Shown in pieces: positions 1-32,000 of a stretch of DNA of 32,000 nt. Source of the DNA: Promethearchaeum syntrophicum (GTDB lineage Archaea; Asgardarchaeota; Lokiarchaeia; Sigyniarchaeales; Promethearchaeaceae). The notes beneath the pieces were generated by a model. It saw only the letters and a list, made by a program, of their open reading frames with translations, had not been told where the DNA came from and did no database searches. How positions within the stretch are numbered: the first letter of the stretch is position 1; every line of letters starts with the position of its first letter. The position numbers were made by a program, and so were the translations under genes. The stretch is taken from contig NZ_CP042905.2 in NCBI RefSeq assembly GCF_008000775.2, positions 2,310,001-2,342,000 on the forward strand, given 5' to 3'.

Positions 1-375
1 AATTTTTTTTGTAGTATAATCTTCTCCATTTATTTTTCTGGATACTTCAATTAAAGATTCTACAGTTTCTTTTATATCCTTATTAGTAATATCTTGGTTG
101 TTATCTATGGGGTGTAAATAACTTGGAATTTCAAGATATTTGCCGATTTCAACCAAAGTTCGCTCATTATGAAATTCTTGCTTTTTTTGCGTAATTATTC
201 CAGAATCAGTTATTCCGATTTCATTAAAATTGGCAATTAATGATGTATCTAAGAATTTATCACCAATTAGAGCTAAACCTTTAAATTCGGGACCACCCCC
301 ACACGAAGGAGGTCTTATTGCTAATTGAAATAAATCGCTATTTCTATCTAAATTGAAAAATTTTTCTGCTAACAT
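1..375 (-). CDS. RNase III-like domain protein, C-terminus cut off by the window edge
   Basis: Not in the ORF track because it runs off the window. My minus-strand translation from the ATG at 375-373 reads MLAEKFFNLDRNSDLFQLAIRPPSCGGGPEFKGLALIGDKFLDTSLIANFNEIGITDSGIITQKKQEFHNERTLVEIGKYLEIPSYL... 'LALIGDKFLD' resembles the RNase III signature (ERLEFLGDAVL). 'HNERTLVEIGKYLEI' resembles the downstream SNExLA segment. Confidence 0.45.
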   Translation of the reverse strand, partial: MLAEKFFNLDRNSDLFQLAIRPPSCGGGPEFKGLALIGDKFLDTSLIANFNEIGITDSGIITQKKQEFHNERTLVEIGKYLEIPSYLHPIDNNQDITNKDIKETVESLIEVSRKINGEDYTTKKI

Positions 376-625
376 TTGATTTATTACCACTTTTTGTATT
401 GTTTGATATATTTATGTTGTTTATCTTGCAATTTAATTCTTCTATTTTTATGATTGATTAAGATACTTAGGATCTTGATTTTCATAATCGAAATATTCAA
501 TAACACAGTGAATTCATTGAAAACTTTTCTCTCTCCGTATGATTTTTTAAAATTAAACAAAATTAATGCTTTATCCTAAAAATGAAATAAATATATAAAT
601 AAGACAATACAATTTTATTCATAAA

Positions 626-3600
626 ATGCCAAAAAAGAAAGAAAAAAATTCTAATCAATTACCAAATGAAAAATCAGAGAAATGGAAGAATTTTAAAAAA
701 AATGCCGCTAAAGGGCTTAAAACCACATTAAAATGGGCATTAATGATAGGACCTGTATTTATCCCTGCAGCAACCCCTATAAGTGCATGTGTATCTTTTA
801 TTAGTCAATTTCTGTCAAAACAACTTCATATGGAAATTGATGAAAAACAAATTTCTGACAGATTATCCAAAGATACAAATTCCATCTCATCAAAATTGAT
901 TACTTCAGAGATAATTAATCACCTAAAAACTAAAAATAAATCCATAACTAACAAAAAATCTATTGAAATTGAGGATACTCTCATAAAACTCGAAAAATCC
1001 CTTGAATATATCCAAAAAAACCAAGAACGAGATCCTGATTCTTTTAAGGAAGTTTATCAGGGATTTTTAGAAGAGTTAAAAGAGGAAAATATTGAGAATT
1101 ATTCAAAACTACAAAAAGTCATTAGTAAGCAAAATGATTTCTTCGACTCCTTTAATCAAAATATCGTTGGATTTTTAGATGATATAAAACAACCCTTATG
1201 GAATTCAAAATTTCAAAATCAGAAGAAAATTCTGGAGTATACTGATGATGACTTACAATTTTTTTGCCAAAAACAACTCGAAATAGAAGAAATCTCATCT
1301 AGATATGATGAACCATATGATAAGGAGCGTTTTGTCCCAGTACAAAAATTAGAAGACGAGTTTGAACGTTTTTCTAAGAATTTGCAAAATAAAGTCAGTA
1401 AAGAGCGTATTTTCCTAATGTTAGGACATATGGGACTAGGAAAAACATGGAATGCTTCCTATATTGGATATAAATATAATGATCAAATTCCAACCTTTAT
1501 TTTTAATTTAGGAACCGCTTTTGAAACAAAATTTGAAAATTGTTTTGGAGATTTATTTGAAAAGAATCCTTTAGAGAACTATTTCAAACGTAAAACTTCA
1601 AACCAATATGGGGAAAAATTATTACTTATTTTTGATGGTTTTGATGAAATTCTACCAAATGAACGTGAAGATATTTTCAATTCAATTATTAATTTGGTTA
1701 AAACGAATCCCAACAAATTAATTATCTTCCTAACTTCACGTCTTGTAGACTGGATTCATACCCCAGTTGTATATTCAAAAGCACGGTCTTATCGAAATTA
1801 TATTTTTCAAAATCAACAATTTGATTCTTTTGAAGATATTTCTATACCGACTGGGGCAAGTTTTATTCTTTCTGATATAAATGATTCCACTTTCCTTAAA
1901 GAAATTACCTCAAAGTATGAAATTGATTATGATTTGATTCAAAACCCTAAGATAAAAATTCTTTTACATAAACCCTTTATTGTTAAACTAATTTCTTCGC
2001 ATAATCCCGACCTAGCCTATCAAGATTTTAATCCTCAAGATGATAAATGGTTCCAAATTTTTGCAGGTCCTAAAAAATATAACACAATTCTGCATCGAAT
2101 GGGAATCCTTGAAGCTGTCGAAAATACATTTCAAGATTTAATCTGTATGATTGGAGATCCATATACTCCAATTTTGGAACAAGAATTGAGGGAGTTTATT
2201 AAACCAAATCAAATCCATTGGGATATTATATTTTCTAGTGGAATTATTAAGAAACGCCAAAAAAACCTTCAAAATGAATTTTATTTCCCTGACGAATATC
2301 AAGATTTCATCGAAAGATATATAACGGAATTAAAAGGAATATTTCATGAAAATGTCATTTGTAAAGCGGATGTTTATGCGCTCGAATCAATTGAAAAAGA
2401 ATTATCAGGCTTCAAAATACAAAATTATACATTTGTCCCCTATAAAGATTTGAATGTTGGATACAAACTAAATAATAAAGGCAGGGTTATTGAAATGTAT
2501 TTAAAAAAACTACAAAATAAATTAAGTTATTTTCCCGAGGGTTTAACTAATCTTATAGAATTAAAAAGATTAAGTTTGGCTAACAATCAAATAGTTAATA
2601 TCCCTAAATCGATCGAAAAATTAAGATTTTTAGAATTTTTAGAGCTTGATAATAATTATATTACTCAAATCCCTCAAGAAATTCAAAAATTAAAAAACTT
2701 AAATCGCATCAGTATAAAAAATAACAATATTCAATTTTTCAAAGGGTGGTGGAATAACCTAAAAAATCTAAAATATATGAATATCAGCAATAATACTAGT
2801 CATATTGAAGGTCATACAATCAAATCAGTTCCGAAAAATTGCTCAATAATTGATGATGGATTTGAAGAAAATTCAGAAATTGTTCTAAAAGATGCTGCTA
2901 TTATTGATTATCTCAATAATTTAAAAAATGAGAATTTTGAAAAGCGCAGTGCAAACTTTAAAGATTTACATTTAATTTCACTGACTCTTAGAAATGCTGA
3001 ATACGATGAATTTAAGGGACTATTTTGGTCATCTGAGAATTTAGCAAGTTTAGAAATCCAAGGCAAATCAGTAAAATTTATGCATAATTCCTCAATTAAG
3101 AAACTTATTTTCAGACAAGATAAAACTCGAGAATTAATGATTGATGAATCGATTTCTCAATTGGAAAGCTTGGAATCGCTTCAAATTTATGGTTATAATA
3201 CCTTAGAACTTCCAGAATCTTTGAAAAAATGTGAAAAATTAAAACAAATTATTATTCAATGCCCAGAACTACAAGTATTGCCACAAATTTTGCTTGAAAT
3301 TAAAAATTTCCATAATATCTTTGTTTCCACTTCAAATATTCCGCTTAATGATATAGATCTTGGAGAATATCAAGATTCAGAGAAATCCCTGATAATTATT
3401 CAATTAAATAAGCAATATAATTTTGCAGACCTACTAATTCCAGAACACATTCACAATTTTTGCTTAATTTCCAGAATTAATATGCCAAAAAAAGTGATTG
3501 TTAAGGGAAAACTTAGAAAATTCTTCTATTTATCGATTAATAAAATTACTATGGATTTTTATAAAAATCTCTCGTTTGGGCATGATAAAAATATTGGAAA

Positions 3601-3877: not shown

Positions 3878-4199
3878 TACCCAGACGGAAAAACCAGAGC
3901 TGTAAGGCAACGCCAAACCAGAAGGCGATAAGTAAAGAAGAACTTAAAAAACAAATAACTAAAAATGTTGAAGAAAAAGTCAAAGTCGAATACAGAGAGA
4001 AATTTAAAAAATTCTAAATTTACTGCTTTGGATGCTCTTTTCTAGTTTTGATAATCAAAACACTCACAACTATCCCTGCAACTATCCAAAATTTCCATCC
4101 GAAAGAAATTGATTCGCTTTCTTCAGGATTCTCAAGTTCATCAGTGTCATAAATATTGTAAGTTTCATTGCTGTAGGTATTATTGATGTATTGTTATAT

Positions 4200-4412
4200 C
4201 TAAAAAGGAAGGGAAAGAAAATCACCAAAAAGTCTACTCATACCATCGGTACTTTCGGTTCCACTTTTTGATGTCAGGATTTCCATCCCGATAGTTTGCC
4301 CCAGCGGGGCGTTTCTCTGCCGGATTGTATCCTGATTAAAATTTTCTAATTTCTGATAGGCACCGAATTCAGATAAATCTTCTCCTGTACCAAGGTTTCT
4401 AATACGTAACAT
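4200..4412 (-). CDS. hypothetical small protein (doubtful, possibly a gene remnant)
   Basis: 70-aa ORF in a locally GC-richer stretch with no recognisable motif. The same frame continues past TAG and TAA stops into a hydrophobic C-terminal tail (see findings). Confidence 0.25.
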   Translation of the reverse strand: MLRIRNLGTGEDLSEFGAYQKLENFNQDTIRQRNAPLGQTIGMEILTSKSGTESTDGMSRLFGDFLSLPF

Positions 4413-4465
4413 TATTTTAGATAACCTTTAAGTACCAGTTGATATACAAGTTTATTTTTACCTAA

Positions 4466-4663: not shown

Positions 4664-4764
4664 TAGATTATAAAAAAATAAAAATTAGAACAATAATAAT
4701 TATTGATAGATTTCAAAAGACAAAAGAGGGAGATTTTATTTCGAGCGGTACCAAACATTCAACT

Positions 4765-5916: not shown

Positions 5917-6334
5917 ACGATTAAATTTGGCTCTTTTTTTATATTTGACTCAATTGGAGTATTTATATTTAAGAAAAAACAAAATCAAGAGGTTTCCAGA
6001 AATACTATCTCAATTCAGAAATCTAAAAATATTCCTATTCTATGATAATTTGCTATCTGATAATCGCAGTCCCGGTTCCATGACACAAAGTAATTATAAT
6101 ACCTTAAAATTTTTACTCAATAACAAATGCAAGATAGATGATGGGTTTAAAACTATGGTTGCTACCGACTACAGAAAAGTCCATGCATTATATAAAACTA
6201 TCTATTGTATTTTCTGTGGACATGGTTTTAATATATACCAAGAAAATCTTCCAATTAATGCATCAAAGAAATGGATATTATGTCCGAATTGTAACAGCGA
6301 AAAACATTATGAATTCAAAAGTATAGTTGAAGAT
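5536..6334 (+). repeat. diverged tandem duplication of the LRR/Zn-ribbon coding segment (copy 1 ~5536-5913, copy 2 ~5945-6334)
   Basis: At the DNA level, 'actcaattggagtattt' opens both copies, followed by colinear codon-level similarity. The protein alignment is described above. Confidence 0.65.
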
Positions 6335-6337
6335 TGA
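5927..6337 (+). CDS. LRR + zinc-ribbon fragment: truncated tandem paralog of the 3' third of the TIR-LRR gene (possibly a pseudogene)
   Basis: 136-aa ORF with a TTG start, 10 nt after the upstream stop. LTQLEYLYLRKNKIKRFPEILSQFRNLKIFLF...CIFCGHGF...LCPNCN aligns colinearly with aa ~258-383 of the upstream protein. It has no TIR domain. Confidence 0.5.
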   Translation: MALFLYLTQLEYLYLRKNKIKRFPEILSQFRNLKIFLFYDNLLSDNRSPGSMTQSNYNTLKFLLNNKCKIDDGFKTMVATDYRKVHALYKTIYCIFCGHGFNIYQENLPINASKKWILCPNCNSEKHYEFKSIVED

Positions 6338-6566: not shown

Positions 6567-6827
6567 TCATTTGTAAACATTTCTTCGATGTCCAATCTTA
6601 ATAATATCAATAATTTTGATTTTTTTACTTATTGTGTATAAAATTCGATAATCTCCTGCTCTCCGTTTAAATACTTTATTAGGTAAATATTTTTTAACAT
6701 TTCCATCATTTTCATAAGGATTTAATTGAATTTCATCTAAAACACGAATAACAGCAGTTTGATTTATTTCATCCAAATTTGAAATGAAATTTTCCCATTT
6801 CCTTGGAATTCGAATTTTCCAAGACAT
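6567..6827 (-). CDS. RelE/ParE-family type II toxin (mRNA interferase-like)
   Basis: 86-aa ORF. RAGDYRILYTISKKIKIIDIIKIGHRRNVYK matches the family hallmark (GDYRI.Y...I..IGHR..VY). TATA-like tttatatataa sits ~24 nt upstream of the ATG on the minus strand (plus 6846-6856). Confidence 0.8.
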   Translation of the reverse strand: MSWKIRIPRKWENFISNLDEINQTAVIRVLDEIQLNPYENDGNVKKYLPNKVFKRRAGDYRILYTISKKIKIIDIIKIGHRRNVYK

Positions 6828-7000: not shown

Positions 7001-7450
7001 ATGCAACAACAAATAAATGAAGAGAAAATACAAAAAAAAGATTATACAATAATTTTACTAAAAAATCATCTTTCTTATGGTGAGATCCAAGAAAAATTAA
7101 AAGAAAAATATGGAACAGGAATGAGTAATCGTGATTTGGGTATGTTGCGTAAAGAAATAAAAGAAAAAACACTTCCCAAAAATCTTGAAACATATCAAAA
7201 CGCTTTTATCAATTTTTATGAGAGTGTTCTAAGTTTAAAATCTTCCATTGATGATTCAGAAATATTAGACGATATTAACGAGTACCATGATCTTTACTAT
7301 GAAACTCGCAAAGAACTAATTATTAAAAATCTCCCCAAAGATTTACGTAACTCAAAAGTTGTTAAATCTATTACAGAATCAATAGACGAATTAAAAAATG
7401 GCGATTTTGTCTATCTTGAAGATTTTAAGAAAAAAATTTCAGTAAAATAA
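7001..7450 (+). CDS. hypothetical protein, possible HTH near the N-terminus
   Basis: 149-aa ORF, charged and helical. LSYGEIQEKLKEKYGTGMSNRDLGMLRKE is HTH-like. A T-run follows the stop. Confidence 0.55.
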   Translation: MQQQINEEKIQKKDYTIILLKNHLSYGEIQEKLKEKYGTGMSNRDLGMLRKEIKEKTLPKNLETYQNAFINFYESVLSLKSSIDDSEILDDINEYHDLYYETRKELIIKNLPKDLRNSKVVKSITESIDELKNGDFVYLEDFKKKISVK

Positions 7451-7457
7451 ATCAATA

Positions 7458-7471
7458 TTTTTGTTTTTTTT
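7458..7471 (+). terminator. oligo-T tract (archaeal-type terminator candidate)
   Basis: tttttgtttttttt begins 8 nt after the stop of the 7001-7450 ORF. Confidence 0.3.
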
Positions 7472-7700
7472 ATATATATCTTTCTACTTTTATTCTCGAT
7501 CTATCGGTGATTTTTTAAGACACTCATAAAATCATATATTATAATATAACCGAAAACGTAACGGGATTTCATGGTTCATTCTGTGCATATATGTAAATAT
7601 ATTAGAGAAATTATTTCATTTATTATGAATTCTTTTTCGATCATCAATTAAATCTATAAATCTCGAAAATAATTAAGTTCAATAATGATATATTAAAAAT

Positions 7701-9146
7701 ATGGATAGCAATATAGACAATATACTAAGAAATTTTGTAATTAAATGGAGAGAATCTAAGGAAAAATCAAAAGTTTTTGATGAAGAAATCGGATTTATGA
7801 ATTTTCCCATTCCTACACAGTTCTTTGTATTTGAATTTAAACATAAAGCTATTCCATTTTATATTATTTTAAAAACTCATTTCTCCAATAAAAAAGATTT
7901 AATTATTCAAAAGAAAGGTAATTTCTCATTGAATAATAACCAGAAGTTGAAAAATTTTCAAGAGGAACTTAACTCTATTTTTCAAATATACTTTTCTAAA
8001 AATGAAAAGGACGAGATCCTTGATTTAATTGCCAGATTTTTGAATAACCAATTTGTGGGTAAGGAGATCGAAATATTGAAAGTTGGGTTTAGATCATCAA
8101 CAACACTAATTAACAATATAAGCATTGGGATTTATTTCGGAGATTGGAATAAATTAAATATTGAAGAAGATGTGAAGAAAAATATTAAAATTCAGAAGGA
8201 AATGGAGAATACATTCGTAAATTTCATGAAATCAAGATATGATAGAATTGATTGTATAGGTGCTTATTTATACCCTCCAATATGGATTGGAATATTACCT
8301 GTACTCTCATTTACAGAAAAAATGCAAGAGATTAAATTAAATGAGATTATTGAAAAGAAGATTGTAGAAGTTGACCATAGGAAAGTAATTTATACTTCTG
8401 ATGGTTATTTTGCAGTGGAAATAAAAAACTCAGTAGATGGATTCAATATCGAAGAAAAAGTGGAAAAATCACCAGAAGAGATATCCTCGATATTAGAAAT
8501 GATGAATTTATTAAATTCCATCTTATTACTGAAAGATTTTCCTATTAATGCTATTCAACGAAGTAATATTTCTTCTTTATGTTATTATATTCCTGAAACA
8601 AATTTTCTATATTTTAGTGTCAAATCAAATTCCGATGCTTCAGAATTATTGAATGATCGGCAGAAGCATATCACAAATGTGCATATAGAGAAAAAAATTA
8701 ATATACCCTTAGAAATATTCAAAGAAAGCATAAGAGAAGTAAAGATGTTAGCAGAAAATAACGAATTAAAAGATTTTAAAGAATTGATTATCACTGGATT
8801 AAATTCTTCAACGAATTATTCACATTTTGAATATCCTCAATCATTTATTCTTGGATGGACAATAATTGAGCAGTATATTAACAATTTGTATAATAAAAAA
8901 CTTAGTTTACAAAATATTCCAAAAGGAAAAAACCCTTCAGTCTATAATAAAATCAAAACATTGAAATCAGCATTTCAAATTAATAATAAGGATTATATAT
9001 TGCTAAATAAACTTCGGATTAAAAGAAATGATTATGTTCATGATTTAACGATGATTGATAAAAAAAATGCTCAAACTTGTTTAGATTTTAGTTTAAAATT
9101 ATTAAAAATATCGTATAATGAAAAAATATCTCATGTTTCTCAATAA
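7701..9146 (+). CDS. protein with a C-terminal HEPN-like domain (putative RNase); N-terminal ~380 aa uncharacterised
   Basis: 481-aa ORF. RNDYVH (aa 442-447, nt 9024-9041) fits the HEPN Rx4-6H motif and lies in a helical context (KLRIKRNDYVHDLTMIDKKNAQTCLDFSLKLLK). Confidence 0.65.
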   Translation: MDSNIDNILRNFVIKWRESKEKSKVFDEEIGFMNFPIPTQFFVFEFKHKAIPFYIILKTHFSNKKDLIIQKKGNFSLNNNQKLKNFQEELNSIFQIYFSKNEKDEILDLIARFLNNQFVGKEIEILKVGFRSSTTLINNISIGIYFGDWNKLNIEEDVKKNIKIQKEMENTFVNFMKSRYDRIDCIGAYLYPPIWIGILPVLSFTEKMQEIKLNEIIEKKIVEVDHRKVIYTSDGYFAVEIKNSVDGFNIEEKVEKSPEEISSILEMMNLLNSILLLKDFPINAIQRSNISSLCYYIPETNFLYFSVKSNSDASELLNDRQKHITNVHIEKKINIPLEIFKESIREVKMLAENNELKDFKELIITGLNSSTNYSHFEYPQSFILGWTIIEQYINNLYNKKLSLQNIPKGKNPSVYNKIKTLKSAFQINNKDYILLNKLRIKRNDYVHDLTMIDKKNAQTCLDFSLKLLKISYNEKISHVSQ

Positions 9147-9189
9147 GTAATTGAAAAAAGGAAAAAAGAAAAGAAAAAAGTATTTATTT

Positions 9190-9297
9190 GGAATTTTTTG
9201 ATGCAGCTCTTTGAGCTCGGGCTTTAAATCCTTGATCACCTTTAGATCCTTTTCGATCTTGAGCAGATTGAATTCTTTTTGATGCTTTTTTTGACAT
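9190..9297 (-). CDS. possible small basic protein (35 aa)
   Basis: Below the ORF-track size cutoff. My translation: MSKKASKRIQSAQDRKGSKGDQGFKARAQRAASKNSK. The segment is locally GC-richer. GGAGGTG lies ~25 nt upstream on the minus strand. Confidence 0.3.
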
Positions 9298-9439
9298 AGA
9301 TTGTTTTTTAACCAATTTCTTTCACCTCCAAAATTTTCGTCAAATAAATAGAGTTAATTTTTTATATATTAGTCTAGAAAAAAATGCGTATGCATATTTT
9401 TTTGTAGTTAAATTGCAACATTAATATTAGTTATATAAG

Positions 9440-12400
9440 ATGAAGCCTACAGAGGATGCAGATAAGTTCCTTCAAAAAATACAGCAAGAATATGGTTGTG
9501 ATAGGATTTCCCAAATCGAACATCTTATCAATTTTGATAGGGAAAAAGAAATATTACAAAGACTCTTGCTATTGCAGTGGTGGTTATTAGGTAAAGATGT
9601 TATTGAGTATGATGTTAGTACTATTGCTGATTTAGTTTCCGATTTAAATAATCCCGATTGTTTAGTTCATAAATTTGAATCATCCATCAAATCCTATTCA
9701 TATACGGATAAATTTAACATAATTTCCAATGGAAAAATAAAAGGACATACGAGTCTAAGAGATTTTCCTCGAAAATGGGCAGAAAATGAAGTTATTTTAA
9801 TAAAGAAAGGAAAAAATTATCATTTAACTGAATTAGGTAAGATTTGTGGTAATTACATTTTTTACAAATTATTAATTGCTGAGATATCTAAAAAAGACCT
9901 GATTAATTTTATAAGATTAGAAGGTAATTTACAATCTCAAATTTATGATCATCACGATAATGCTGATTTAATCCGAATGCAAATAATTCAAGATACTAAA
10001 ACGGATTCTAACAAATATGACTATACTCCTAAATTTTCAGAATTAATTACATTCCTTCAAAATTTTCCAGAACTCTATCCAAATGAATTATTAATGATAA
10101 AAAAGAGTTTAATAAATAAAATTTTTCACCGATATGCTGCCAATTTAAACATAAATCATACTCACTTGCTTCAGAATGGAGAAAAAATTACAAATAGCAG
10201 TATTAAAAGAGAAAAAATCAATTGGATTTATAATCTTGAATTAAGATCAAAAGAGAATCAAACATTTGATTTACCAATTACTAATAGAGTAAAAATTAAA
10301 GCGAATCCATTTAAAGTTCGATTCCAGGTACTAAAATCACCAGGAGGATATGGGAAAACAATATTTCTCTATCAATTAGCCTTAAATAATCTATTGGAAA
10401 TACATAATACCAACAGTGCAATTACTGAAATCTCCAAAAAGAAACAATCATGGATTCCAATAATTATAGTATGCAGAAATTTGCATTTATTAAAATCAAA
10501 GGATAAATATACCTTATTTTATAATGCGGAAAAAATTGTTGACTTCAGAACTTTTTTTAAAATCAATACCCCTCCTAAGTTTGAAGAACTTATTGTAACA
10601 CTTCTTTATTCATTTTTAAAAAAATCTTCCTTTACAACTAAAGCAACTTGCCAATTTTTCTTAAAGAGTATTATTAATCATAATATATTGCTAATCTTTG
10701 ATGGATGGGATGAAATTGAAGATAATCTGATGAAGAAATGTATAATGAGTTTAATTGAAGAACTATTTATGAAAATGACGAATATTGTGTGTTTAGTAGC
10801 AACAAGATATCTTGATCAAATTTTAGAACAAAAATTAGAATTAAAGCGAAATAAAAGCATAAAAAAGAAATATGATCCAGTTCATTTAAGTTTATCATCC
10901 CTAACAGATTCCCAAATATCAAACTATCTATCAGATTTTTTCCAAACTGATCAGCAAACAATTAATAAATTTATTCAAGAAACAAACTCTCAATATACTC
11001 CTTTAGAACTATATTTCTTAACACTTTTTCCTAAAATTGATTTACCTAAGTATAAATTTAAGCTTTATGAGAGAAGAATTTTATTTGGAGTCTTATCTGA
11101 ATTCTATCCAATAGCTAAATTACAGAAAATTGATTCAATTACAGAAATATTTTATTTATTGGATAAAAATGTTCAACAATCAGATTCTGATAATTTTTTA
11201 CTTAACAACAACCAAGATAAAACCAGAAATAAAGACTCTATATTAAAAAATGATATATCTACTAATGATCACGGAATTAAAATTCGAGATTTGATTTATG
11301 GTCGTCTTTTCTCACTTATAACATCAAGTTCTAGGAATTATTCCCTTTATTCAATAATGCCATATATATGCTACTCGTCATTGTTTCCACTAAAATTTCC
11401 CCCTCTTGAATATGCTCAATGTATCAGAGTAAATCCAGTACTAAAACGCTTTATTGCTCCAAAAGATGAGCCAACTAATAATTCTTTAATTGCAATTTTA
11501 CTTGATTGGCATTTTATGGATTATTTCTTATCGTATAGGATTTTTCAAGCATTTTGTAATGATGAAACAATTCAACCAATTCCCTATAAATCGGTTGAAA
11601 ATTTTCTTAAAGAACGATTTGAAAACCTAGATGAAAGTAAGGATTTAATCTTTCAGAAATTTCACCAATATGGTATTCAAAATTTTGATGATTTTTTAAG
11701 TATGATTTATTTAGAAGCCAAAATTGAATTCCCTCCTCAAAAATTTCTTAGAGATGATTTTGATCCTGGTGATGGTGGATTTTCTGATCCTGGTATGAAA
11801 ATTACAATGAGTTTGAATATGCCCATTTATGGAAAAGAATTGATTGAAGCATTTAGATTTGAATTTAATAAAGCAAGAAAGAAGAAAGAATATCATTTAG
11901 TTCCTCCAATTCTTCAATTATTCAACATTTTTTATAAAGAACGCCCGAGTATTCAACGTCAAATAAAAATGCCAACTGATAGTGACCCAGAATTTTATGA
12001 TCCAGAAGAGAATCATTCTCCTTTAGATTACTTTGATATTGTTTCTTCTCTTTTCTTTAAAGATCAATATTCTCCTGAAAACATAGAAATTATCAGATAT
12101 GAAGAAAAAGAAAATGAGTATTATTTACAATCTACTGGATTTTATAATGAATCAAGTCTTTCGTTAGAAAAACACGAAGGAAAATTCTGGAAAAGGAGTG
12201 ACATTAGGGAAATTCTGGAAAAGATGCTCTTAATCTCTAATGAGCACCTCATACCGTGGTTAGAGCAGGTTTATTTAAAACTTCCCGATGAATTAAAACC
12301 AAAATTAGATTCTAATCAACTTAAAAACATTCTTTACTCCTCAAAAAATCAAGTTATACAACGATCATCTTTTAATTTACTTCTTCGAATAAATATTGAG

Positions 12401-15358: not shown

Positions 15359-15385
15359 TTAAATATAAAAAATGCAGAAATTCCA

Positions 15386-15920: not shown

Positions 15921-15960
15921 TTTTTTAATATATTTTCCAATGATTAAACTGAGGGTGTAA

Positions 15961-23476: not shown

Positions 23477-23733
23477 AATCTATAACTGGGATTAAGATTG
23501 ATAAAGTTTACCTTGATCGTACAATTAAAAGAAATAATGTACTAATCCAAGAAATTAAGAGAAAAAATTCCTTGTGAATGAAGATCACATTCACTTCTAA
23601 CCCCCAATCTTTTTTCCAATCGCTTTATCTAATTCTTCAGCCAAAATTAATACATCCTTGCCTAATAATCCCAAATTCTTCAGATATCCTACCCGTCGAA
23701 GAAGATTTCTTGTACGTCGTAAATCTTTGAGTT

Positions 23734-25035
23734 CTAAAACATTGAATCCGATTTCAGACATATACTTGGATAAGGAGCTTCTGGGGCGAATGATGTCTTA
23801 TCTCGTAGAGATGCGTAGGTAATTTTTGCAATCTTGCCTGCTATAATACAATATGCAAGTTTTTTAGATCGATCTCCTTTTCGGGCGAGAATGCGGTTTG
23901 TATACGCTTTTAGATCGGATTCATGTTTTAGAAAATTACAAACCACTACTGCCGCATTATAAAAGAGTGTGCGTAAGAATTTGTTAGAATGTCGATTTGT
24001 GTGCGCATGATAGATCTTTCCTGCTGAACTTACTACATTTGGGCAACATCCACAATACGAACGAAAATGTCGCCAAGATGGAAAATAGGATATTGAACCA
24101 ATCTCGGCTAAAATCCAAACTGCCGAAAATGAGGAGATACCTGGGATTGTAGATAATTGATGTGCTTGTTGCCTAAGACCTGGACAATCTAAAAGTAGTT
24201 TATCTACTTCCAAAGCAAGAATGGTTTTACGGCTGGTTTTAAAATCTAAATCAATCAAATGTTGTCGAATTAGTGCTCGTTGTACAGAAGTAAGGGATAA
24301 TTCGTAAAATGACTCAAATTTGGCTTCATTTTTAACCAAACTATTTCGATGTTTTAATAAAACATTAGGATTTTGCATAAAATCTTGAGTGAATTGTCCT
24401 AATGTCTTTGATTGCTGAATAAACCCATAAAGGAAATATTTGGTCCATTCATGATTCAAATTTAATCCGCGAGGACGAATGCCTGCACGATCCAACGTTT
24501 TTCGAATTCGATTCTTTAGCATTGTACGATCTTTTTCTAGTTTTATGGCCATTCGGAAGATTGCTTTGAGATCTTCAAGAATAAAAATAATTTTCTTACC
24601 ATTTTTAAGGAGGCCATTAGCGACGTACTTTGCAAGTTTGATGGCATCAATCTTATCGTGTTTTGCAGTACCTGGAATTCCCGCAGCGTCTGCTGGATTT
24701 GAAACAACTATGTCATAAGACCAACTCGAATCAAGCCGTTTTCTTTCTAAAAATTGAACAACGGCATGATGATAGATTCCTGTAGATTCCATCGCAAATG
24801 CTACAGGGCGATATTTTTTTACAAATCCAAAAAGTTGTCTTAATCCATCTTGATCCGTTTGAAAAATACTGGTTTTTATAAAATCTCTGTTAGTTCGGTC
24901 TCTTGCATAGATACAAGCAGTAATTTCATGTTTATGCACATCCATCCCACAATAATAAATCACTCTTGTGAGATCTTCCGAAAATTTAAACGGTTTCTTT
25001 TCCATAATATACTCACCCTTCAAGGGACCAAACAC
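23734..25035 (-). CDS. IS110-family (DEDD) transposase
   Basis: 433-aa ORF. N-terminal CGMDVHKHE...ESTGIYHH is RuvC-like DEDD. C-terminal PGISSFSAVWILAEIGSISYF...FRSYCGCCPNVVSSAGK...NKFLRTLFYNAA is Transposase_20-like. The true start may be the second Met (ATG at 25005-25003). Confidence 0.9.
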   Translation of the reverse strand: MFGPLKGEYIMEKKPFKFSEDLTRVIYYCGMDVHKHEITACIYARDRTNRDFIKTSIFQTDQDGLRQLFGFVKKYRPVAFAMESTGIYHHAVVQFLERKRLDSSWSYDIVVSNPADAAGIPGTAKHDKIDAIKLAKYVANGLLKNGKKIIFILEDLKAIFRMAIKLEKDRTMLKNRIRKTLDRAGIRPRGLNLNHEWTKYFLYGFIQQSKTLGQFTQDFMQNPNVLLKHRNSLVKNEAKFESFYELSLTSVQRALIRQHLIDLDFKTSRKTILALEVDKLLLDCPGLRQQAHQLSTIPGISSFSAVWILAEIGSISYFPSWRHFRSYCGCCPNVVSSAGKIYHAHTNRHSNKFLRTLFYNAAVVVCNFLKHESDLKAYTNRILARKGDRSKKLAYCIIAGKIAKITYASLRDKTSFAPEAPYPSICLKSDSMF

Positions 25036-25348
25036 GATAGCCTCCGCTGATTAAGGATTTTCAGGCTGTAACTGATATTCTTCCTCCTCATGACGAGACT
25101 CTTCAGAGACCATTGTGTTTGGGTTACTCCATGATGCATGGAGGGTATATTCCAAACATACAGACGACATATCTGGGCCTTTCTCAAGTTTTATCTAGAG
25201 GTTTGCTCATATTGAGCCTCCTAGGGGTTTCTAAGCTGGAAGAGTTTCAACTCAGTCGTCGTCCAACTAATTTTTTCTCAAGATTTCAACTTTTGATAAG
25301 TTGTACCAAAAATGATACCTAGCTTGAGTATGATGGAATATGTCTAAG
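25036..25348 (-). ncRNA. candidate IS110 bridge/seek RNA in the 5' non-coding arm
   Basis: A ~310-nt GC-richer non-coding arm lies upstream of the transposase. It contains a perfect hairpin ctccatg-atg-catggag (25127-25143) and other imperfect stems. The location matches where IS110-group elements encode their guide RNA. No covariance model was run. Confidence 0.3.
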
Positions 25349-25489
25349 AAGATCCACATTGATTCTCTTGGATTTTACGGTACAATAAAGGAACTCGGAA
25401 AAAAAGATAAAAATAAAATATGAAAGATATCAGAATTCTTTTATAATCCTAATAATAATTCTTGAATGGAAAGTTATCATCTAAATATC

Positions 25490-25984
25490 TTATTTATATA
25501 AATTAGAATTTATTAGATTTCTTTTTGTATTTCCAAAAATTCGGACAATTGAATCCATCCATCCCATTGTAATACATTCTTTAATTGAAATTGTTTTAAA
25601 TTCCTCTTTATTTTTTTTATTTATCTTTGTTGGCATTCTATCTATTTCATGAACTGATACCCAATACCATGTATAATACCCGCTTTCTTTAGTAGTTATT
25701 GCAAGCCATACTTCTAAATCATATGATTTAGCAAATTTTAATAATTTCTGAAATTCGTTGATTCCAATAGTAAAATTTCCATATTTCGTATAAATTCGTT
25801 TTAATTTAACATCAACATAAATATCTCTCTGATAAGGAAGCTGAATAACAAAATCTGGGCGTTTAATTATCATAGAAAAGGATTCTGCAAACGTTTCTGG
25901 ACTTTGATCAATAAAATACCATGAAGTTTTTTGATGATTTAACCAATTTTTAAATTTTTCCTCGCTAAGAGTCAAGTTTTGCAT
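25490..25984 (-). CDS. PD-(D/E)xK-like nuclease fold protein
   Basis: 164-aa ORF. KRPDFVIQLPYQRDIYVDVKLK fits a PD...(D/E)xK core. The start is 4 nt after the upstream stop. GGAGG (minus strand, plus 25996-26000) lies 11 nt upstream of the ATG. Confidence 0.55.
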   Translation of the reverse strand: MQNLTLSEEKFKNWLNHQKTSWYFIDQSPETFAESFSMIIKRPDFVIQLPYQRDIYVDVKLKRIYTKYGNFTIGINEFQKLLKFAKSYDLEVWLAITTKESGYYTWYWVSVHEIDRMPTKINKKNKEEFKTISIKECITMGWMDSIVRIFGNTKRNLINSNLYK

Positions 25985-25988
25985 TTTA

Positions 25989-27032
25989 TTATTTTCCTCC
26001 TTTTTTTATACATTCAGGATGATATCTAAATCCTAGATCATCTTCAATGACTTTTTCAGACAAAACATAATAAATATCTCCTGAAATCTTTACTTCTCCA
26101 ATTGTTCCCCAAATTAAAGAATTTAAATCACCATATAATTCCATTATTAAATCTTTTGACATACTTTTATAGAATCTATAAGTCTTTTTTTCAATAGTTT
26201 CAAAATTAGTCCTATCGAGAAGTGAAATTGATTGATTAAATTCAGAACATAATTGAAAAATATTAAGTGGTAAACCGCAATATTCACAAGATTCACTAAG
26301 GTTCGATTTAAAACCAGAATAATTATCCCAAGTAAAAAAATGTTTAATTTTATCAAAAATATTTGTACTTAGACTAATTTTCTGTCGATAATAAACTGCA
26401 TGAGCACATTTCAAATGAGTTTTCAATTCATATGCAATTACTTCCGAAATGCTATCTATTAAAATAAGTTTTATATGAACTTTTGTTGATTCTACTTTTT
26501 GATAACAAATTGGACAGACATTTAATAATCGTGCAGCACGATAACTAAGTGTTATCATATTATCTTCATCAGGATGTCGGTATATTAACTCGTATCTTAA
26601 TAAAAGGTCTTTATTTTCAGATAATTGTTTCATCAGATCTTGATTATTTTGATCAAGTTTTTTCTCGGATCTAATATTTTTCTTTTCTAAATATATATAT
26701 ATCCGCTGTTTCGATAAATATTGAAAAAGCGACAAATATTTCTCGATATTTTTTTTGCCTTCATCCCAATTACTTGATATAAAATAACCTTTACCTGCAC
26801 TAAATTGAATTATCTCTTCTTTAATCAAATGTTTAGCATGATCATATATTGTGGTTTTTCCAACAGGTTGTTGTTTCTTTTTATCTCGATATTCATTTAT
26901 TTCTTTAAATAATTCTGCTAATGTTAATGTGTTTGAAGTAGCTTGCTGCAATGCAGAAATTATTTCATCATCACTTAATTTTTTCTTTTCTATTACATCT
27001 TCACTTATTTTTTTTGTCATAATTTTCATCAT
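25989..27032 (-). CDS. putative DNA-binding protein: N-terminal wHTH plus two Cys/His zinc-binding clusters
   Basis: 347-aa ORF. GKTTIYDHAKHLIKEEIIQFSAGKGYFIS is wHTH-like. Zinc-binding candidates are CPICYQ...HLKCAH and CEYCG...HPEC. Confidence 0.5.
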   Translation of the reverse strand: MMKIMTKKISEDVIEKKKLSDDEIISALQQATSNTLTLAELFKEINEYRDKKKQQPVGKTTIYDHAKHLIKEEIIQFSAGKGYFISSNWDEGKKNIEKYLSLFQYLSKQRIYIYLEKKNIRSEKKLDQNNQDLMKQLSENKDLLLRYELIYRHPDEDNMITLSYRAARLLNVCPICYQKVESTKVHIKLILIDSISEVIAYELKTHLKCAHAVYYRQKISLSTNIFDKIKHFFTWDNYSGFKSNLSESCEYCGLPLNIFQLCSEFNQSISLLDRTNFETIEKKTYRFYKSMSKDLIMELYGDLNSLIWGTIGEVKISGDIYYVLSEKVIEDDLGFRYHPECIKKGGK

Positions 27033-27345: not shown

Positions 27346-27594
27346 ATGAATAGAAGAAAAAATAAAACCTACATTGATAAAGCAGGTTATAAACGATTTA
27401 GGGATTCTGGAACTCTTTTTCACCGATACGTTGCTGAAAGAAAATTAAGAAGAAAACTGCGCAGCGGTGAAGTAGTGCATCATAAGAACAGAGATAAAAG
27501 GGATAATCGGCGTTCAAATTTGTGGGTATTTAGTTCGCAAAAGAAACACTATATGGCTCATAAAGAAGATAAAAGAAGGTTTGGATATTGGTAA
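27346..27594 (+). CDS. small HNH endonuclease
   Basis: 82-aa ORF. VVHHKNRDKRDNRRSNLWVF...KKHYMAH is a classic HNH (HHxNxDxxDNxxxNL...H) pattern. Confidence 0.8.
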   Translation: MNRRKNKTYIDKAGYKRFRDSGTLFHRYVAERKLRRKLRSGEVVHHKNRDKRDNRRSNLWVFSSQKKHYMAHKEDKRRFGYW

Positions 27595-27750
27595 AAATAA
27601 GTTTTATAAATGACATGAAGGCTTTTTATTCCTTAAGAGGCTTTTGATTAGAATTTTTCTTTAATCTAAGCTTATTAACTTCAATAATTCATAAATCCAC
27701 TTAATCTCCAATCTCATAACTAATCTACCATGAAATAATAAAAAAATTAA

Positions 27751-30645
27751 CTATTTATTCTCAATATCTTTAAAACTTTCTTCGATTTCTTGATATAATG
27801 AATCAATTAATCCAATAGGTATATTTAATGCTCTAAACCACGCTTCATCTAATTTTCTTAGACTATTCTCTTTATTCCTACGGGCTCCTTTAACCAGTTC
27901 TACTATATTAGGTCTTTCTTTCAGAGTTTTTCTTGTATTATGAATATTGGATGTTCTAATAATTTCGTTGAAATTTACTTCATCTTTTACAATTTTGGGA
28001 AAATCTGGAAAACGAAATTTTAAAAACAGATCGATTTGATATACTAAAACAAATTCAGCTCGTCTTTTTCGTGATTTTTCAACAACATCTAAAATAAAAA
28101 GTGAACTTGTTAAATAACTAAAAAATAAATCATCCATTTGACTATTACATCCCCTAAAACCTATTCGTATCATCATGGTGCCATTTTTTGGAGGTACAAA
28201 CTTTAAAGCAATAGATTTTGTGCTTTTAAAGTCAATTTTTTTGACAATCCCAATAGAAACCTTTGCTGGAGAGTGCATTGAATGCGAAGGTCCGAATAAT
28301 TTTGCCAAATGCGCTTTTTGACCCCAAGAAAAGTATTTTTTCATCTTTGGATGCTTTTCATGAAATAAAAAGAAATTCACCAATTCATTTGTATTAACTA
28401 CAGGAAAATATTCTCGGTAATTTTTTAAAGTTCGAGAAATTGCTGGTTTATAAACTTCAATAGGTAAATGTAAAAACTGAGGTGTATTTCCATCTGTGCT
28501 GATTACGGTATTTTTTGACGTAGCTTTTATAGTTATTTTGTCCTCTGTAATTTGAGAAATATCCCAATATTTATTTGGTAAAAACCAATAATCAACAGGT
28601 CTTGAAGCATTTTCAGTCACAACCGTAATACTCTGGCTTAAATCATTTTTATAATTCTCTTTATCAAGCGGATTTAATTTCTTTAAATTTAATGGAATGA
28701 AATTAGAATACAAAAGAAGCATCATCTTACTTGGTTGAAGATTCCACATTATACAAGATACACTTTTTACTTTTTCTTGTGGTATGTTCTGGATTAGAAA
28801 ATCTTTGGTTCTTAATAACGGCGCATCAGTTGCATCCCATGAATTTACCAAGCCATTTATATCTTTCTTACTTAGGATTCCAAATAATTTTATGAATCTA
28901 GCACATTTATCGTAATTTTTTTGTAAGATTATAATAATTTCATGGTCATCTGAATCTGAAAAGGATTCGTCTAAGTCCGAAGCTTCAATTAAATATTTAA
29001 TCCCAAATTCATTTTCTAAGATTGTTTTCCAAACATCCACCATATTAACAGTATTTATGGCACCAACTGGTAAAATGAATGCAAGTATACCATTTTCTTT
29101 TTTTACAAATTGAGGTAAAATTAAGATGAAGAAGGCATACAAATTTATGCTTGAAAAATTCAATTTTAAATTATTATTTTTTACTACATCTAAATTCAAT
29201 AGTTTTTTTCTGTAATTGGGTGTTAACCTCGAACCTCTTGTAAAAGGCGGGTTAGCTATTAGCACATCAATGCTATGGTTTAATTTTTTATAAACAGGTT
29301 TAACTAATTTTCGCTCATTTGCAGTTATTTTCACGATTGGAAAGAAACGTTCTATTCCTGAAACCAATGAGAAAACATCATGAGGATAAATGTAAACTTT
29401 ATTTGTCCATTTTGAAGGGTTTTGAATTGCTAGATTTACCGTCGTCATCATAGCAGCGATATCAGAGATATCCGAACCCCTAATATCATCTAAAAGTTTT
29501 TTGTGTTGTTTTAATTTCAATTCTTTTTTTCTATGATAAGCCTTTACTAGTAAGGTTCCAGATCCACAAGCAGGATCGTAAATTTTACTGCCTTTATCAT
29601 TTATTGCAAGCCTACATAATAATTCGGCAGCTTCATTTCTTGTATAGTAAGCTGCAAATTTCTTTCGTGTTTCAAATGGCATCAAACGTTGAAAAATTTG
29701 TCCAATTAAGTCATTTTCAATTACATATTTGCTTGAAATTCCTTCTAAATCAAAGATAATTTTTTGAAGTACATCTGAAGCATCATCCTCAAGGTAAGAA
29801 AAAACTTCTCGACTTTTTCCAAAGATTGAAGTGAAATTTAAATTATTATTTGGAATATCTTCAATAATTTCTTGGATTTGGGAGGGTATTCCATTTGATG
29901 TACTCAAAGGTCTCAAACGGGGTATTTTAAGACCGTTTTCAATACGGTACATCCGCAATACAATATAAAAAAGGAGTTGTGTTATTGCAATATAAGCTGC
30001 TGTTCTTTGAAAAAATGAATACCTATCTTTTAATTCTTGCTCGGTTAATTCTTTCTTTTTTGCAATTTTCTCTTGTTCATCATTCAGCCGTAAATGTTTT
30101 TCCCATTCTTCCCCGGGTATTTTTACAGTAAAACGAATTAACGAATCAATATAATTTTCAAGATCTTTTAAGATCTCTTCAGGTTCCTTCAATAATATTA
30201 AACCAGTGTAGTTCTCTATCTTTTTGGAGATAAATTCTGCCATTTTATGAAATGAATTGAATAAATGAACTTCAGAATTCTTAACGGTATATGTTGGCGT
30301 ATATTCATAAAAAATAAGATCTTCATAGTTAGTAACAAATCCGATTTTACAATTCAGTTCCTTACAATATTTCTTTAGTTGTAACTCGTCTTGTTCTAAA
30401 TTGCCCTTTCCTTTAATTTTTGTTTCAATTATTGCTGAAACCGCGTCTTTATTATCCCAAACTATCCTATTTTTGTCTAGCTCAATTTGGATCAGTTCAG
30501 TTTTGAATATAACAATATCTTCCTGAAAATGTTTTTTTTGAAATATTAACTCTTGAAAGACTCTAAATTGAATGCCTAATCTACTTTTCAAGAAATCTAT
30601 TAGCTCAGGGCGGTCTGTATGTTCTGACATTTTCAGATTTGGCAT
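27751..30645 (-). CDS. type IIG-like restriction-modification fusion: N-terminal PD-ExK nuclease motif + gamma-class N6-adenine DNA methyltransferase + C-terminal specificity region
   Basis: 964-aa ORF. D64...AIIETK76 is a nuclease-like motif. FAAYYTRNEAAELL. Motif I YDPACGSGT (plus 29557-29577). Motif IV NPPF (plus 29242-29253). About 490 aa follow the motifs as a putative target recognition region. Confidence 0.85.
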   Translation of the reverse strand: MPNLKMSEHTDRPELIDFLKSRLGIQFRVFQELIFQKKHFQEDIVIFKTELIQIELDKNRIVWDNKDAVSAIIETKIKGKGNLEQDELQLKKYCKELNCKIGFVTNYEDLIFYEYTPTYTVKNSEVHLFNSFHKMAEFISKKIENYTGLILLKEPEEILKDLENYIDSLIRFTVKIPGEEWEKHLRLNDEQEKIAKKKELTEQELKDRYSFFQRTAAYIAITQLLFYIVLRMYRIENGLKIPRLRPLSTSNGIPSQIQEIIEDIPNNNLNFTSIFGKSREVFSYLEDDASDVLQKIIFDLEGISSKYVIENDLIGQIFQRLMPFETRKKFAAYYTRNEAAELLCRLAINDKGSKIYDPACGSGTLLVKAYHRKKELKLKQHKKLLDDIRGSDISDIAAMMTTVNLAIQNPSKWTNKVYIYPHDVFSLVSGIERFFPIVKITANERKLVKPVYKKLNHSIDVLIANPPFTRGSRLTPNYRKKLLNLDVVKNNNLKLNFSSINLYAFFILILPQFVKKENGILAFILPVGAINTVNMVDVWKTILENEFGIKYLIEASDLDESFSDSDDHEIIIILQKNYDKCARFIKLFGILSKKDINGLVNSWDATDAPLLRTKDFLIQNIPQEKVKSVSCIMWNLQPSKMMLLLYSNFIPLNLKKLNPLDKENYKNDLSQSITVVTENASRPVDYWFLPNKYWDISQITEDKITIKATSKNTVISTDGNTPQFLHLPIEVYKPAISRTLKNYREYFPVVNTNELVNFFLFHEKHPKMKKYFSWGQKAHLAKLFGPSHSMHSPAKVSIGIVKKIDFKSTKSIALKFVPPKNGTMMIRIGFRGCNSQMDDLFFSYLTSSLFILDVVEKSRKRRAEFVLVYQIDLFLKFRFPDFPKIVKDEVNFNEIIRTSNIHNTRKTLKERPNIVELVKGARRNKENSLRKLDEAWFRALNIPIGLIDSLYQEIEESFKDIENK

Positions 30646-31114
30646 GTTTTTAAACCACTATAATGAAGTTTTTTGTATAAATCAGAAGTAATTAATGAAT
30701 CTTCTTTTTTAATACTTTAATTATCTCTTTGTTATCAATCTTTTCCAAAAAATCTTAAGTTTCATGATGTGAACTTTGGTTATCTATTAACTCGAGGTTA
30801 TACCAAAGTAAACTATATTACTCAGTTAAAGAATGAAAACATTGAAATAGATAAATTAGAACTTTCAACTTTGTAATGACTAAAACCTAATCGCTAACCA
30901 AATCATTATGTTATGACTCTCGAAAACCAAAATGATTGGAATTAAACCTATAGATCAGATTAATAATTAGATTCTAATATTCAAAAGTAAGTAATTAATT
31001 TATAATGACATTCTTTGAAGTTTTGACTGTAGTCGGGTTTTTATTGATTTAATTGGATTTATTTATTTAATTATCACTATTTTAAGAAAAACAAAGCAAA
31101 TTGAAGATAGAATC

Positions 31115-31318
31115 TTGAAATTGGAAGAAATAAGATTAGACTATGAAAAATCCATAGAAAGAATAAAAGCAGATGTAGAAAAATCGAAACATTCAGATAA
31201 TATAGACCTACAAAAAGTTTTTGCGAGGAAATTTGCAGAAATATCAATTCCAGATTTAATTAAATTGATTAAAGATGAAGATGTGCGAACCTTCCTTGAG
31301 AAAAGTAAGAAAAAATAA
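31115..31318 (+). CDS. hypothetical small coiled-coil protein (TTG start, doubtful)
   Basis: 67-aa charged helical ORF. The upstream in-frame sequence encodes a hydrophobic stretch but has no canonical start codon. Confidence 0.25.
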   Translation: MKLEEIRLDYEKSIERIKADVEKSKHSDNIDLQKVFARKFAEISIPDLIKLIKDEDVRTFLEKSKKK

Positions 31319-31439
31319 TATTCTATTGGAATATCTATAAACTGGTGGTCCTATTCGCGATTACCTTTCCCATGTTATCTTATTGATTTATTTGATTATT
31401 TTTTTCAATTTCATCTCTTTTATTAAAAGAAAATATAAA

Positions 31440-31919
31440 TCACCTTCCAACATCACGTGCGGCTTCTTCAATCCAAGATCCAATATTATATTTTCCCTTA
31501 TCATCAAACCAATCATAAATTGGAACATGATCTGATAAAGGTTGATTATAATCATCATAAACATATTCAAAAGGATTATTTCCCTTTGTATCCCTTTTTC
31601 TATATTTATTTCGCAATTTGTGGATATAAATGCCCAACAATGCATTATTTTTGAGATAACTTTGTTTAATTTCATATTTAATCCATCTTCTATAAGACGT
31701 TTCTTGCCCAATTAAAACTACGGTCACTGAAGTTCCATGAAGAGTTTGATTTATTAGTTTTTTTATTTCTTGATCATTAAAAGTAGGATGATTTTCTTCG
31801 ATCGAACCATCCCAAAAACCAGCAGCTTCTCTTGTTTCAGCATAGTACCAAGAACTTTTGATATATCTTGCTCTCCAAATATCTCTTTGATAATGAAAAC
31901 TAAAAAAAACTACCCTCAT
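31440..31919 (-). CDS. ThsB-like TIR-like domain protein (DUF1863/MTH538 TIR-like family)
   Basis: 159-aa ORF. MRVVFFSFHYQRDIWRARYIKSSW...AAGFWDGSIEE...LINQTLHGTSVTVVLIGQETSYRRWIKYEIKQS...LLGIYIH...KGNNPFEY follows the conserved ThsB/DUF1863 pattern (FFSFHYq.D..R...v...W, TSVTVVLIG..T..RrW..YEI, G.NPF). Confidence 0.8.
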   Translation of the reverse strand: MRVVFFSFHYQRDIWRARYIKSSWYYAETREAAGFWDGSIEENHPTFNDQEIKKLINQTLHGTSVTVVLIGQETSYRRWIKYEIKQSYLKNNALLGIYIHKLRNKYRKRDTKGNNPFEYVYDDYNQPLSDHVPIYDWFDDKGKYNIGSWIEEAARDVGR

Positions 31920-32000
31920 AATGTTGAATCATTCCATTTTTTTGATTTTTTGTCTGTTTGATTTAGTTAATTTAAGTTAAAAAATCTAAAAGAAAATAAC

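Follow-up and report, generated by a model that had tools for sequence, protein, structure and literature searches.

A probable defence island with NACHT, TIR and leucine-rich-repeat genes in the Asgard archaeon Promethearchaeum syntrophicum

What kind of locus brings NACHT, TIR and leucine-rich-repeat (LRR) genes together in an archaeon, and do its parts belong to one system or to many? The question is raised by 32 kb of the Promethearchaeum syntrophicum chromosome (contig NZ_CP042905.2, positions 2,310,001 to 2,342,000), here called the window, i.e., the whole stretch of DNA that was analysed. A reading of the letters alone (the sequence-only reading) had described it as a dense defence island. 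Our analysis points to the same answer, with a probability of roughly 80%: the window forms the middle 32 kb of a defence island that lies on the chromosome of an AT-rich Asgard host, spans at least 43 kb and is composed of independent modules and not of one system. Among its products are NACHT-LRR and TIR proteins whose architecture resembles that of immune receptors in eukaryotes.

Extent and modular composition of the island

Along with toxin and STAND genes, a stretch of about 43 kb holds four unrelated systems: the GmrSD-type enzyme HEC-05, a type IIG restriction-modification (RM) fusion, the PDC-M50 candidate and a DUF3427 type IV restriction enzyme. All four are recognised defence systems or candidates; the first three lie inside or straddle the window, and the island extends beyond both window ends. 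Twenty-one credible open reading frames (ORFs) occupy the window (Table 1). They were profiled with Pfam at its curated cut-offs, PADLOC, NCBIfam and PHROGs, and 10.8 kb of flanking sequence was read in addition (9.4 kb to the left and 1.4 kb to the right), so that domain content and gene order come from these searches. Pfam and PADLOC supported most of the domain calls that had been made by eye, including those of Smr, HNH, GmrSD-like, type IIG RM, RelE toxin and IS110 genes. The GmrSD-family protein of 573 amino acids (aa) aligns end to end with PADLOC HEC-05 (E = 1.4e-223, residues 4–571), and both of its GmrSD domains score above their cut-offs. In the type IIG fusion the methyltransferase part is clear, the N-terminus reaches 22.1 bits against HSDR_N_2, below the cut-off of 25, and comparison with PDB sequences gave weak methyltransferase matches only. 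No ORF in the window or in the flanks read matched a housekeeping family, except possibly the RNase III-like gene at the left edge, which the sequence-only reading had also singled out. The full edge gene (8647–9750 of the left-flank contig, minus strand) encodes 367 aa with the RNase III-like signature GLALIGDKFLD...KETVESLIE and two stretches resembling double-stranded RNA-binding domains (dsRBDs), the second with GFGKSKSQSKKNAGLQ; a phmmer search returned no PDB match for it. An RNase III with two dsRBDs at this edge could be either a housekeeping enzyme or part of a defence directed at double-stranded RNA.

The activities and triggers of these modules, and any defence role of the orphan ORFs, can be suggested from what the families do elsewhere. 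In the DNA restriction module, the type IIG fusion would methylate self DNA and cut unmodified DNA, and the GmrSD/HEC-05 enzyme and the DUF3427 type IV enzyme outside the window would cut modified viral DNA. In the sensor-effector module, STAND and TIR proteins would kill or arrest the infected cell. The LRRs of the NACHT-LRR protein are predicted to bind a viral protein, leading to NTP-dependent oligomerisation and then to action of the N-terminal hydrophobic hairpin; the TIR-LRR-zinc-ribbon protein would degrade NAD+; and in PDC-M50 a nucleotide signal would come from the ThsB-type TIR, and the putative effector would be a small membrane protein with three helices. The 1972-aa NACHT-like orphan is provisionally placed among these sensor-effectors. 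Loose toxin or nuclease domains (ParE/RelE, DUF4145/HEPN, Smr and HNH), about seven orphan ORFs and one IS110 element would make up the remaining content.

Alternatively, the block could be carried by a mobile element that has integrated (such as a genomic island, the remnant of a provirus or an aloposon-like element) and not be a stable chromosomal hotspot. The G+C content is ~27% throughout the window apart from one richer patch, and the IS110 element, at 34–45%, is foreign in composition; this difference and the single copy on record suggest a recent arrival of the IS110. The block is also more AT-rich than the housekeeping genes of a related metagenome-assembled genome (MAG; 25–26% G+C in the NACHT gene versus 31–34% in the CDC48 region), and most of its genes are orphans or patchily distributed. 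Against a mobile origin, however, the window and its 10.8 kb of flanks contain no integrase, tRNA gene, att-like long direct repeat, capsid, terminase or conjugation gene, and the PHROGs scan of the window ORFs gave a clear match for HNH alone, with weak function-unknown matches for two others. We consider a mobile origin unlikely and retain the reading as a chromosomal island. The window also lacks Rfam families, CRISPR-like repeats and long terminal repeats.

Contamination from the bacterial or methanogen co-culture partner was rejected, given the G+C content of 27% and a NACHT-LRR gene whose affinity is with Promethearchaeota. This gene has its closest genomic relative in a Promethearchaeota MAG, which narrows the archaeal origin suspected earlier to Asgard. 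Three window proteins that were looked up are residue-for-residue identical on two Logan contigs of run DRR199588, which Imachi et al. (2020) list as expression data for the Ca. Prometheoarchaeum syntrophicum MK-D1 culture. In this RNA-seq assembly, the 37-kb contig DRR199588_96 covers window positions ~1–27645 and the 5.7-kb contig DRR199588_15 covers positions 27677–32000. Island genes of both orientations are spanned, with a single gap where the HNH and type IIG genes converge. This coverage means either that all of the island is transcribed in culture or that the library contained genomic DNA.

The NACHT-LRR family and a giant NACHT-like protein

At the family level, sequence comparisons lead us to accept the 1083-aa protein as a NACHT-clade STAND NTPase. 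It carries the Walker A motif GHMGLGKT and the Walker B motif LLLIFDGFDE, and it scores 24.1 bits against NPHP3_N over its full length and 25.7 bits over its N-terminal 620 aa, at a cut-off of 24.8. When 1.84 billion cluster representatives were searched exhaustively with HMMER, it fell into a family of 86 representatives. Eight of these are 38–45% identical to it, measure 1263–1701 aa and, like the window protein, are rich in K, N and I. Among the 48 members from which the alignment and the Pfam content were taken, NPHP3_N was found in 28, NACHT in 20 and LRRs in 16, and others carry HEAT, TPR or MORN repeats. GxGKTW, DGxDE, R372 and W376 are invariant in this alignment, as are G270, G272, K273, D337 and E341. 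The profile of the NTPase module matches 'predicted NACHT family NTPase' at 6e-11, and its search of a set of 5.8 billion proteins returned three. At the C-terminus, the LRRs score 56 bits against LRR_14 and match PDB LRR proteins at up to 2e-36; LRR matches likewise dominate the comparison of the full-length profile with PDB.

The family appears to be lineage-restricted, as the one relative that could be placed, and the close relatives, point to Promethearchaeota. Among species-representative genomes, the NACHT module found one close match (45% identity), in a Promethearchaeota archaeon MAG, 33X4; the remaining matches kept are NACHT genes of ~26% identity, mostly cyanobacterial. The 33X4 homologue has 1626 aa, aligns at 36% identity over 1093 aa with the LRR region among them, and carries an extra N-terminal CHAT (caspase-like) domain. 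In the MAG (positions 7187–13765 of the stretch read), a gene for a DUF4062 protein precedes the homologue's gene, and CDC48 and ferredoxin genes are its neighbours. The G+C content of this NACHT gene is 25–26%, compared with 31–34% in the neighbouring CDC48 region, which fits an accessory gene inserted among core genes. In a relative from an ENA metagenome, a gene for CHAT and the NTPase is followed by a separate LRR gene, and SLFN/AlbA_2 and DUF4365 genes lie within the same 22-kb stretch. The neighbourhoods of the relatives have nothing in common with the window, which argues weakly against a conserved syntenic block.

The N-terminus of the window protein opens with a basic stretch, continues into a hydrophobic hairpin (residues 38–59) and matches no domain. 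Family members that lack CHAT, this protein included, share such a start, with a hairpin rich in Gly, Ala and Pro. From these N-termini we infer a possible effector swap within the family, between a CHAT protease and a membrane-active peptide.

The second NACHT NTPase that had been proposed, the 1972-aa protein, is NACHT-like in its motifs (GGYGKT and ILLIFDGWDE), and its membership is not demonstrated at the profile level. When it was compared with the family of the 1083-aa protein by hhalign, a probability of 77% was obtained over 53 columns, confined to the region of Walker B and the sensor. When 5.8 billion proteins were searched for homologues with a word filter, only the protein itself came back, and PDB gave no match. 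Of the two NACHT calls, the 1083-aa protein thus stands at the family level and the 1972-aa protein stays below threshold.

Several observations weigh against reading these genes as part of a defence island. The scores against Pfam NACHT are 14 bits for the 1083-aa protein and 21.7 bits for the 1972-aa protein, below the cut-off of 26.7 in both cases. PADLOC has no match for either of them or for the TIR-LRR protein, and the family profile of the NACHT module found no solved NLR among PDB sequences. The defence role of the seven orphan ORFs is guilt by association alone, because they have no homologues. Moreover, Lokiarchaeia in general have expanded sets of LRR proteins, whose role could be in signalling and not in immunity. 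The NACHT, LRR and TIR proteins might accordingly be eukaryote-like signalling proteins comparable to Roco/STAND regulators, not antiviral ones, with restriction genes nearby by coincidence. The lack of a PADLOC defence model for the NACHT-LRR and TIR-LRR proteins would suit such a role, as would LRRs nearest to the SHOC-2/LRRD1 scaffold type and the position of the 33X4 homologue next to CDC48 and ferredoxin genes. However, the window genes have four recognised restriction or TIR systems around them, and their relatives carry the death-type effector CHAT and lie near SLFN/AlbA_2, DUF4365 and DUF4062 genes. The family is also rare and patchy (86 among 1.84 billion), as is typical for defence genes, and NACHT proteins of the same tripartite layout protect bacteria from phage. 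A role confined to signalling is, in our view, quite improbable, and we continue to read the NACHT and TIR genes as defence modules.

A further step would be to regard the Asgard-restricted NACHT-LRR family (with CHAT exchanged for a membrane-inserting hairpin), the TIR-LRR-zinc-ribbon protein and the 1972-aa STAND protein as archaeal pattern-recognition receptors that catalogues have missed. At least one of them would then be a functional antiviral receptor, with a NACHT module that branches nearer to eukaryotic NLRs than any of the bacterial clades. We put this forward as a doubtful, speculative proposal.

TIR proteins and the PDC-M50 genes

Both TIR-type proteins named in the sequence-only reading are supported by profiles (TIR_2 at 40 bits versus 28, and ThsB_TIR at 81 bits), and so are the three LRR proteins (56, 84 and 28 bits, with a cut-off of 27 for the last); a fourth ORF with LRRs, at 5927–6337, is sub-threshold. 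In the TIR-LRR-zinc-ribbon protein, a candidate catalytic Glu is present in SGPVQQETDMAV, as judged by eye and not by residue-level alignment to a characterised TIR. Its LRRs match SHOC-2/LIC-type repeats in PDB, and a metagenome scan with this protein found nothing. The NACHT-LRR and TIR-LRR genes are 890 bp apart with two opposite-strand ORFs between them, and their arrangement therefore looks like co-location rather than an operon. Both architectures are present, as had been pointed out; the bearing of the pairing on the ancestry of NLR and TIR immunity is modest because NACHT-LRR proteins of prokaryotes have been described and tested before, and a survey of Asgard NLRs exists.

Downstream of the NACHT-LRR gene, the minus strand of window positions 3880–4460 has a G+C content of 33.5% and contains a 70-aa ORF and, after two close in-frame stops, a piece ending in the membrane-anchor-like FGWKFWIVAGIVVSVLIIKTRK. 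This segment may be a remnant of a disrupted surface-protein gene.

The ORF at 5927–6337 is 38% identical to the C-terminus of the TIR-LRR protein over 125 aa (BLASTP, E = 4e-23), a similarity also seen as the DNA repeat D1, and it may be a fragment or a pseudogene. A further question is whether much of the block is decaying, in which case the orphans, the TIR-less LRR protein, the antitoxin-less ParE and the CHAT-less NACHT-LRR protein would all be functionless remnants. The TTG start and missing TIR of the LRR fragment, the toxin without antitoxin, the possible pseudogene pieces at 4000–4412 and the IS insertion are in keeping with decay. On the other hand, long ORFs (1083, 1972, 964 and 573 codons) have remained intact in DNA of 27% G+C, where stops arise easily, and the catalytic motifs are intact as well. 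Several relatives likewise lack CHAT and have a hydrophobic N-terminus, and reads of the RNA-seq run cover the whole region. General decay is therefore hard to credit.

The PDC-M50 candidate straddles the right end of the window. PDC-M50A and PDC-M50B are adjacent on one strand: the M50A partner, a 149-aa protein with three hydrophobic helices (5.6e-43), is encoded directly upstream of M50B beyond the window end. The M50B protein is a clear relative of Bacillus cereus ThsB (PDB 6LHY/9B7D; E = 3e-28), and its WIKYEI aligns with WVRYEI, the catalytic Glu included. Membership of Thoeris was considered for this TIR and ruled out, as no ThsA (SIR2/SLOG or Macro-TM) is present in the window or in the 1.4 kb beyond. 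To our knowledge, PDC-M50 has never been tested experimentally.

A second TIR protein (160 aa, TIR match at 2e-12) is encoded beyond the right end and is 22% identical to the ThsB-like TIR. The 160-aa TIR, PDC-M50A and the 159-aa ThsB-like TIR form an operon-like trio on the minus strand, from window position 31440 to about 33030, in which both TIRs retain the YE motif. The trio carries one TIR more than the two-gene PDC-M50 candidate.

Orphan neighbours, relation to known systems and significance

Table 1. Features of the window and of the left flank, with window coordinates, strand and the matches on which each assignment is based
Feature	Position	Strand	Basis
RNase III-like edge gene, N-terminal 125 codons of a 367-aa protein	1..375	-	dsrm 25.9 vs cut-off 23; Ribonuclease_3 E=0.017
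NACHT-clade STAND NTPase (family level) with C-terminal LRRs, 1083 aa	626..3877	+	Pfam, motifs, family alignment
Zinc-ribbon protein of unknown role, 65 aa	4466..4663	-	CxxC...CxxC by eye; weak function-unknown PHROG match
TIR-LRR protein with C-terminal zinc ribbon, 383 aa	4765..5916	+	TIR_2 40 vs 28 bits; LRR_8 28 vs 27
LRR and zinc-ribbon paralogue of the TIR-LRR C-terminus, without TIR, TTG start	5927..6337	+	BLASTP, sub-threshold LRR
ParE/RelE-superfamily toxin	6567..6827	-	ParE_toxin 30 bits vs cut-off 23
Orphan upstream of the DUF4145 protein, 149 aa	7001..7450	+	no Pfam, PADLOC, NCBIfam or PHROGs match
Protein with C-terminal DUF4145 (HEPN-type), 481 aa	7701..9146	+	DUF4145 23.8 bits vs cut-off 23.1; RNDYVH at residue 442
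Orphan P-loop protein, NACHT-like STAND, 1972 aa	9440..15358	+	motifs; sub-threshold NACHT
Small Smr-domain protein, 125 aa	15386..15763	-	Smr 30.7 vs cut-off 25.7
Orphan with ribbon-helix-helix-like (VapB/CopG-like) N-terminus, 365 aa	15961..17058	+	NCBIfam VapB-family antitoxin E=1.2e-5, residues 7-43, below cut-off
Orphan, 420 aa	17404..18666	+	no profile matches
Orphan, 317 aa	18653..19606	+	RNKAAH motif only; no profile match
GmrSD-family type IV restriction enzyme, 573 aa	19786..21507	-	GmrSD_N 110 bits, GmrSD_C 29 bits; HEC-05
Stand-alone LRR protein, 390 aa	22304..23476	+	LRR_14 84 bits
IS110-family insertion sequence	23590..25400 (transposase ORF 23734-25035)	-	DEDD_Tnp_IS110 72 bits, Transposase_20 62 bits
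Two-gene orphan cassette: 347-aa Cys-rich-motif protein, 4-nt gap, 164-aa protein	25490..27032	-	
Small HNH endonuclease, 82 aa	27346..27594	+	HNH_3 35.7 bits; PHROG HNH families 9e-11
Type IIG restriction-modification fusion, 964 aa	27751..30645	-	N6_Mtase 53.5, MmeI_Mtase 32.9, Eco57I 26.9 bits; REase_MTase_IIG 9e-18
ThsB-type TIR protein (PDC-M50B), 159 aa	31440..31919	-	ThsB_TIR 81 bits; PDC-M50B 4e-59
DUF3427/PLD/helicase type IV restriction enzyme	2 kb left of window		PADLOC 2e-211
SNase-domain protein and several orphans	left flank (9.4 kb read)		

About 12 ORFs across the window and the flanks are without any family match. Of the seven or so orphan ORFs counted here as neighbours, four lie in two tightly packed pairs that are probably co-transcribed. 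The genes of the first pair (420 and 317 aa) overlap by 14 nt, so the two proteins are probably co-translated. Searches for the 420-aa protein by tblastn against plasmids and by a metagenome scan gave nothing, and tblastn of the 317-aa protein against plasmids was equally empty. Single-sequence AlphaFold models of both were too poor for use (317 aa, all-helical, pLDDT 48; 420 aa, pLDDT 34). The second pair, the 347-/164-aa cassette, matched nothing in Pfam, PADLOC or PHROGs, and a viral scan with the 347-aa ORF was empty; the sole hint is a sub-threshold NCBIfam HYExAFE match of the 164-aa protein (23.5 bits versus 60). The 365-aa orphan is possibly a regulator.

The motif-based calls of the sequence-only reading fared unevenly. 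The chance level of the Rx4H and PD...(D/E)xK motifs was estimated by shuffling the K/E/D-rich protein set of the window. Of the two HEPN-motif proteins, the 481-aa protein holds as a borderline DUF4145 match (23.8 versus 23.1), and the 317-aa protein has the motif only, at a frequency expected by chance (0.17 occurrences are expected by chance in this protein). The three PD-(D/E)xK motifs were not borne out: none reaches a profile threshold, and their frequency is at or below the shuffled expectation. In a listing of small ORFs, no plausible antitoxin gene for the ParE/RelE toxin was found on either side. The 97-aa ORF upstream of the toxin is hydrophobic and of low complexity, and it overlaps the start of the opposite-strand 149-aa gene. 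As for the IS110 element, a bridge-RNA-like structured element upstream of its transposase was considered and rejected, the fold of the 455-nt non-coding region being not significant (z = -0.94).

Every recognisable part of the island is a kind of system already known, and it brings unrelated defence systems together with toxins and a transposase, as do the defence islands described by Makarova et al. (2011). The NACHT-LRR gene resembles bNACHT genes (e.g., the LRR-bearing bNACHT16) and Avs in its layout of putative N-terminal effector, P-loop NTPase (GxxGxGKT and hhhhDGxDE) and C-terminal LRRs as the presumed sensor, and it likewise sits among restriction systems. It differs in having no PADLOC bNACHT or Avs match, with a Pfam NACHT score below the cut-off, and in having a short hydrophobic hairpin and not a nuclease, TIR or protease at its N-terminus. 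Protection from phage is known for bacterial NACHT proteins of this tripartite layout, and bNACHT16 behaved like an NLR: bacterial growth was inhibited when it carried activating mutations of the NLR type (Kibby et al. preprint, which has a NACHT tree of 25 clades). The ThsB-type TIR is a clear ThsB homologue with the catalytic Glu of WxxYE aligned; unlike in Thoeris, its partner is a 149-aa membrane protein and not ThsA, and a second TIR gene flanks the pair. The 573-aa polypeptide combines DUF262 and DUF1524 as in type IV enzymes of the GmrSD/BrxU kind, and the notable difference is the archaeal host only. The type IIG fusion shares with MmeI/Eco57I-like enzymes a single polypeptide of ~960 aa, a gamma-class N6-adenine methyltransferase core and an N-terminus resembling HSDR_N, whereas its nuclease domain falls below the Pfam cut-off (22.1 versus 25).

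Prokaryotic STANDs have been catalogued at scale (in a 2026 study in Nature, with a tree of 589 clades), and Asgard defence systems including NLRs have been surveyed with the MK-D1 genome in the data set (Leao et al. 2024). The present island is not described in the texts searched. The NACHT and TIR-LRR genes have no PADLOC match, and a model-based survey may therefore not have counted them. What is new is limited to the rare NACHT-LRR family, the PADLOC-undetected TIR-LRR-zinc-ribbon protein and giant orphan STAND protein, and the orphan neighbours. The gain is incremental, as the architectures, the island concept and the census of Asgard defence are already published. The main practical value lies in a list of candidates: STAND and TIR genes that PADLOC does not see, and the seven orphan neighbours. 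MK-D1 is described as the closest cultured archaeal relative of eukaryotes (Imachi et al. 2020), and an intact locus with NACHT-LRR, TIR-LRR and ThsB-type genes offers defined genes for testing NLR- and TIR-style immunity in Asgard archaea.

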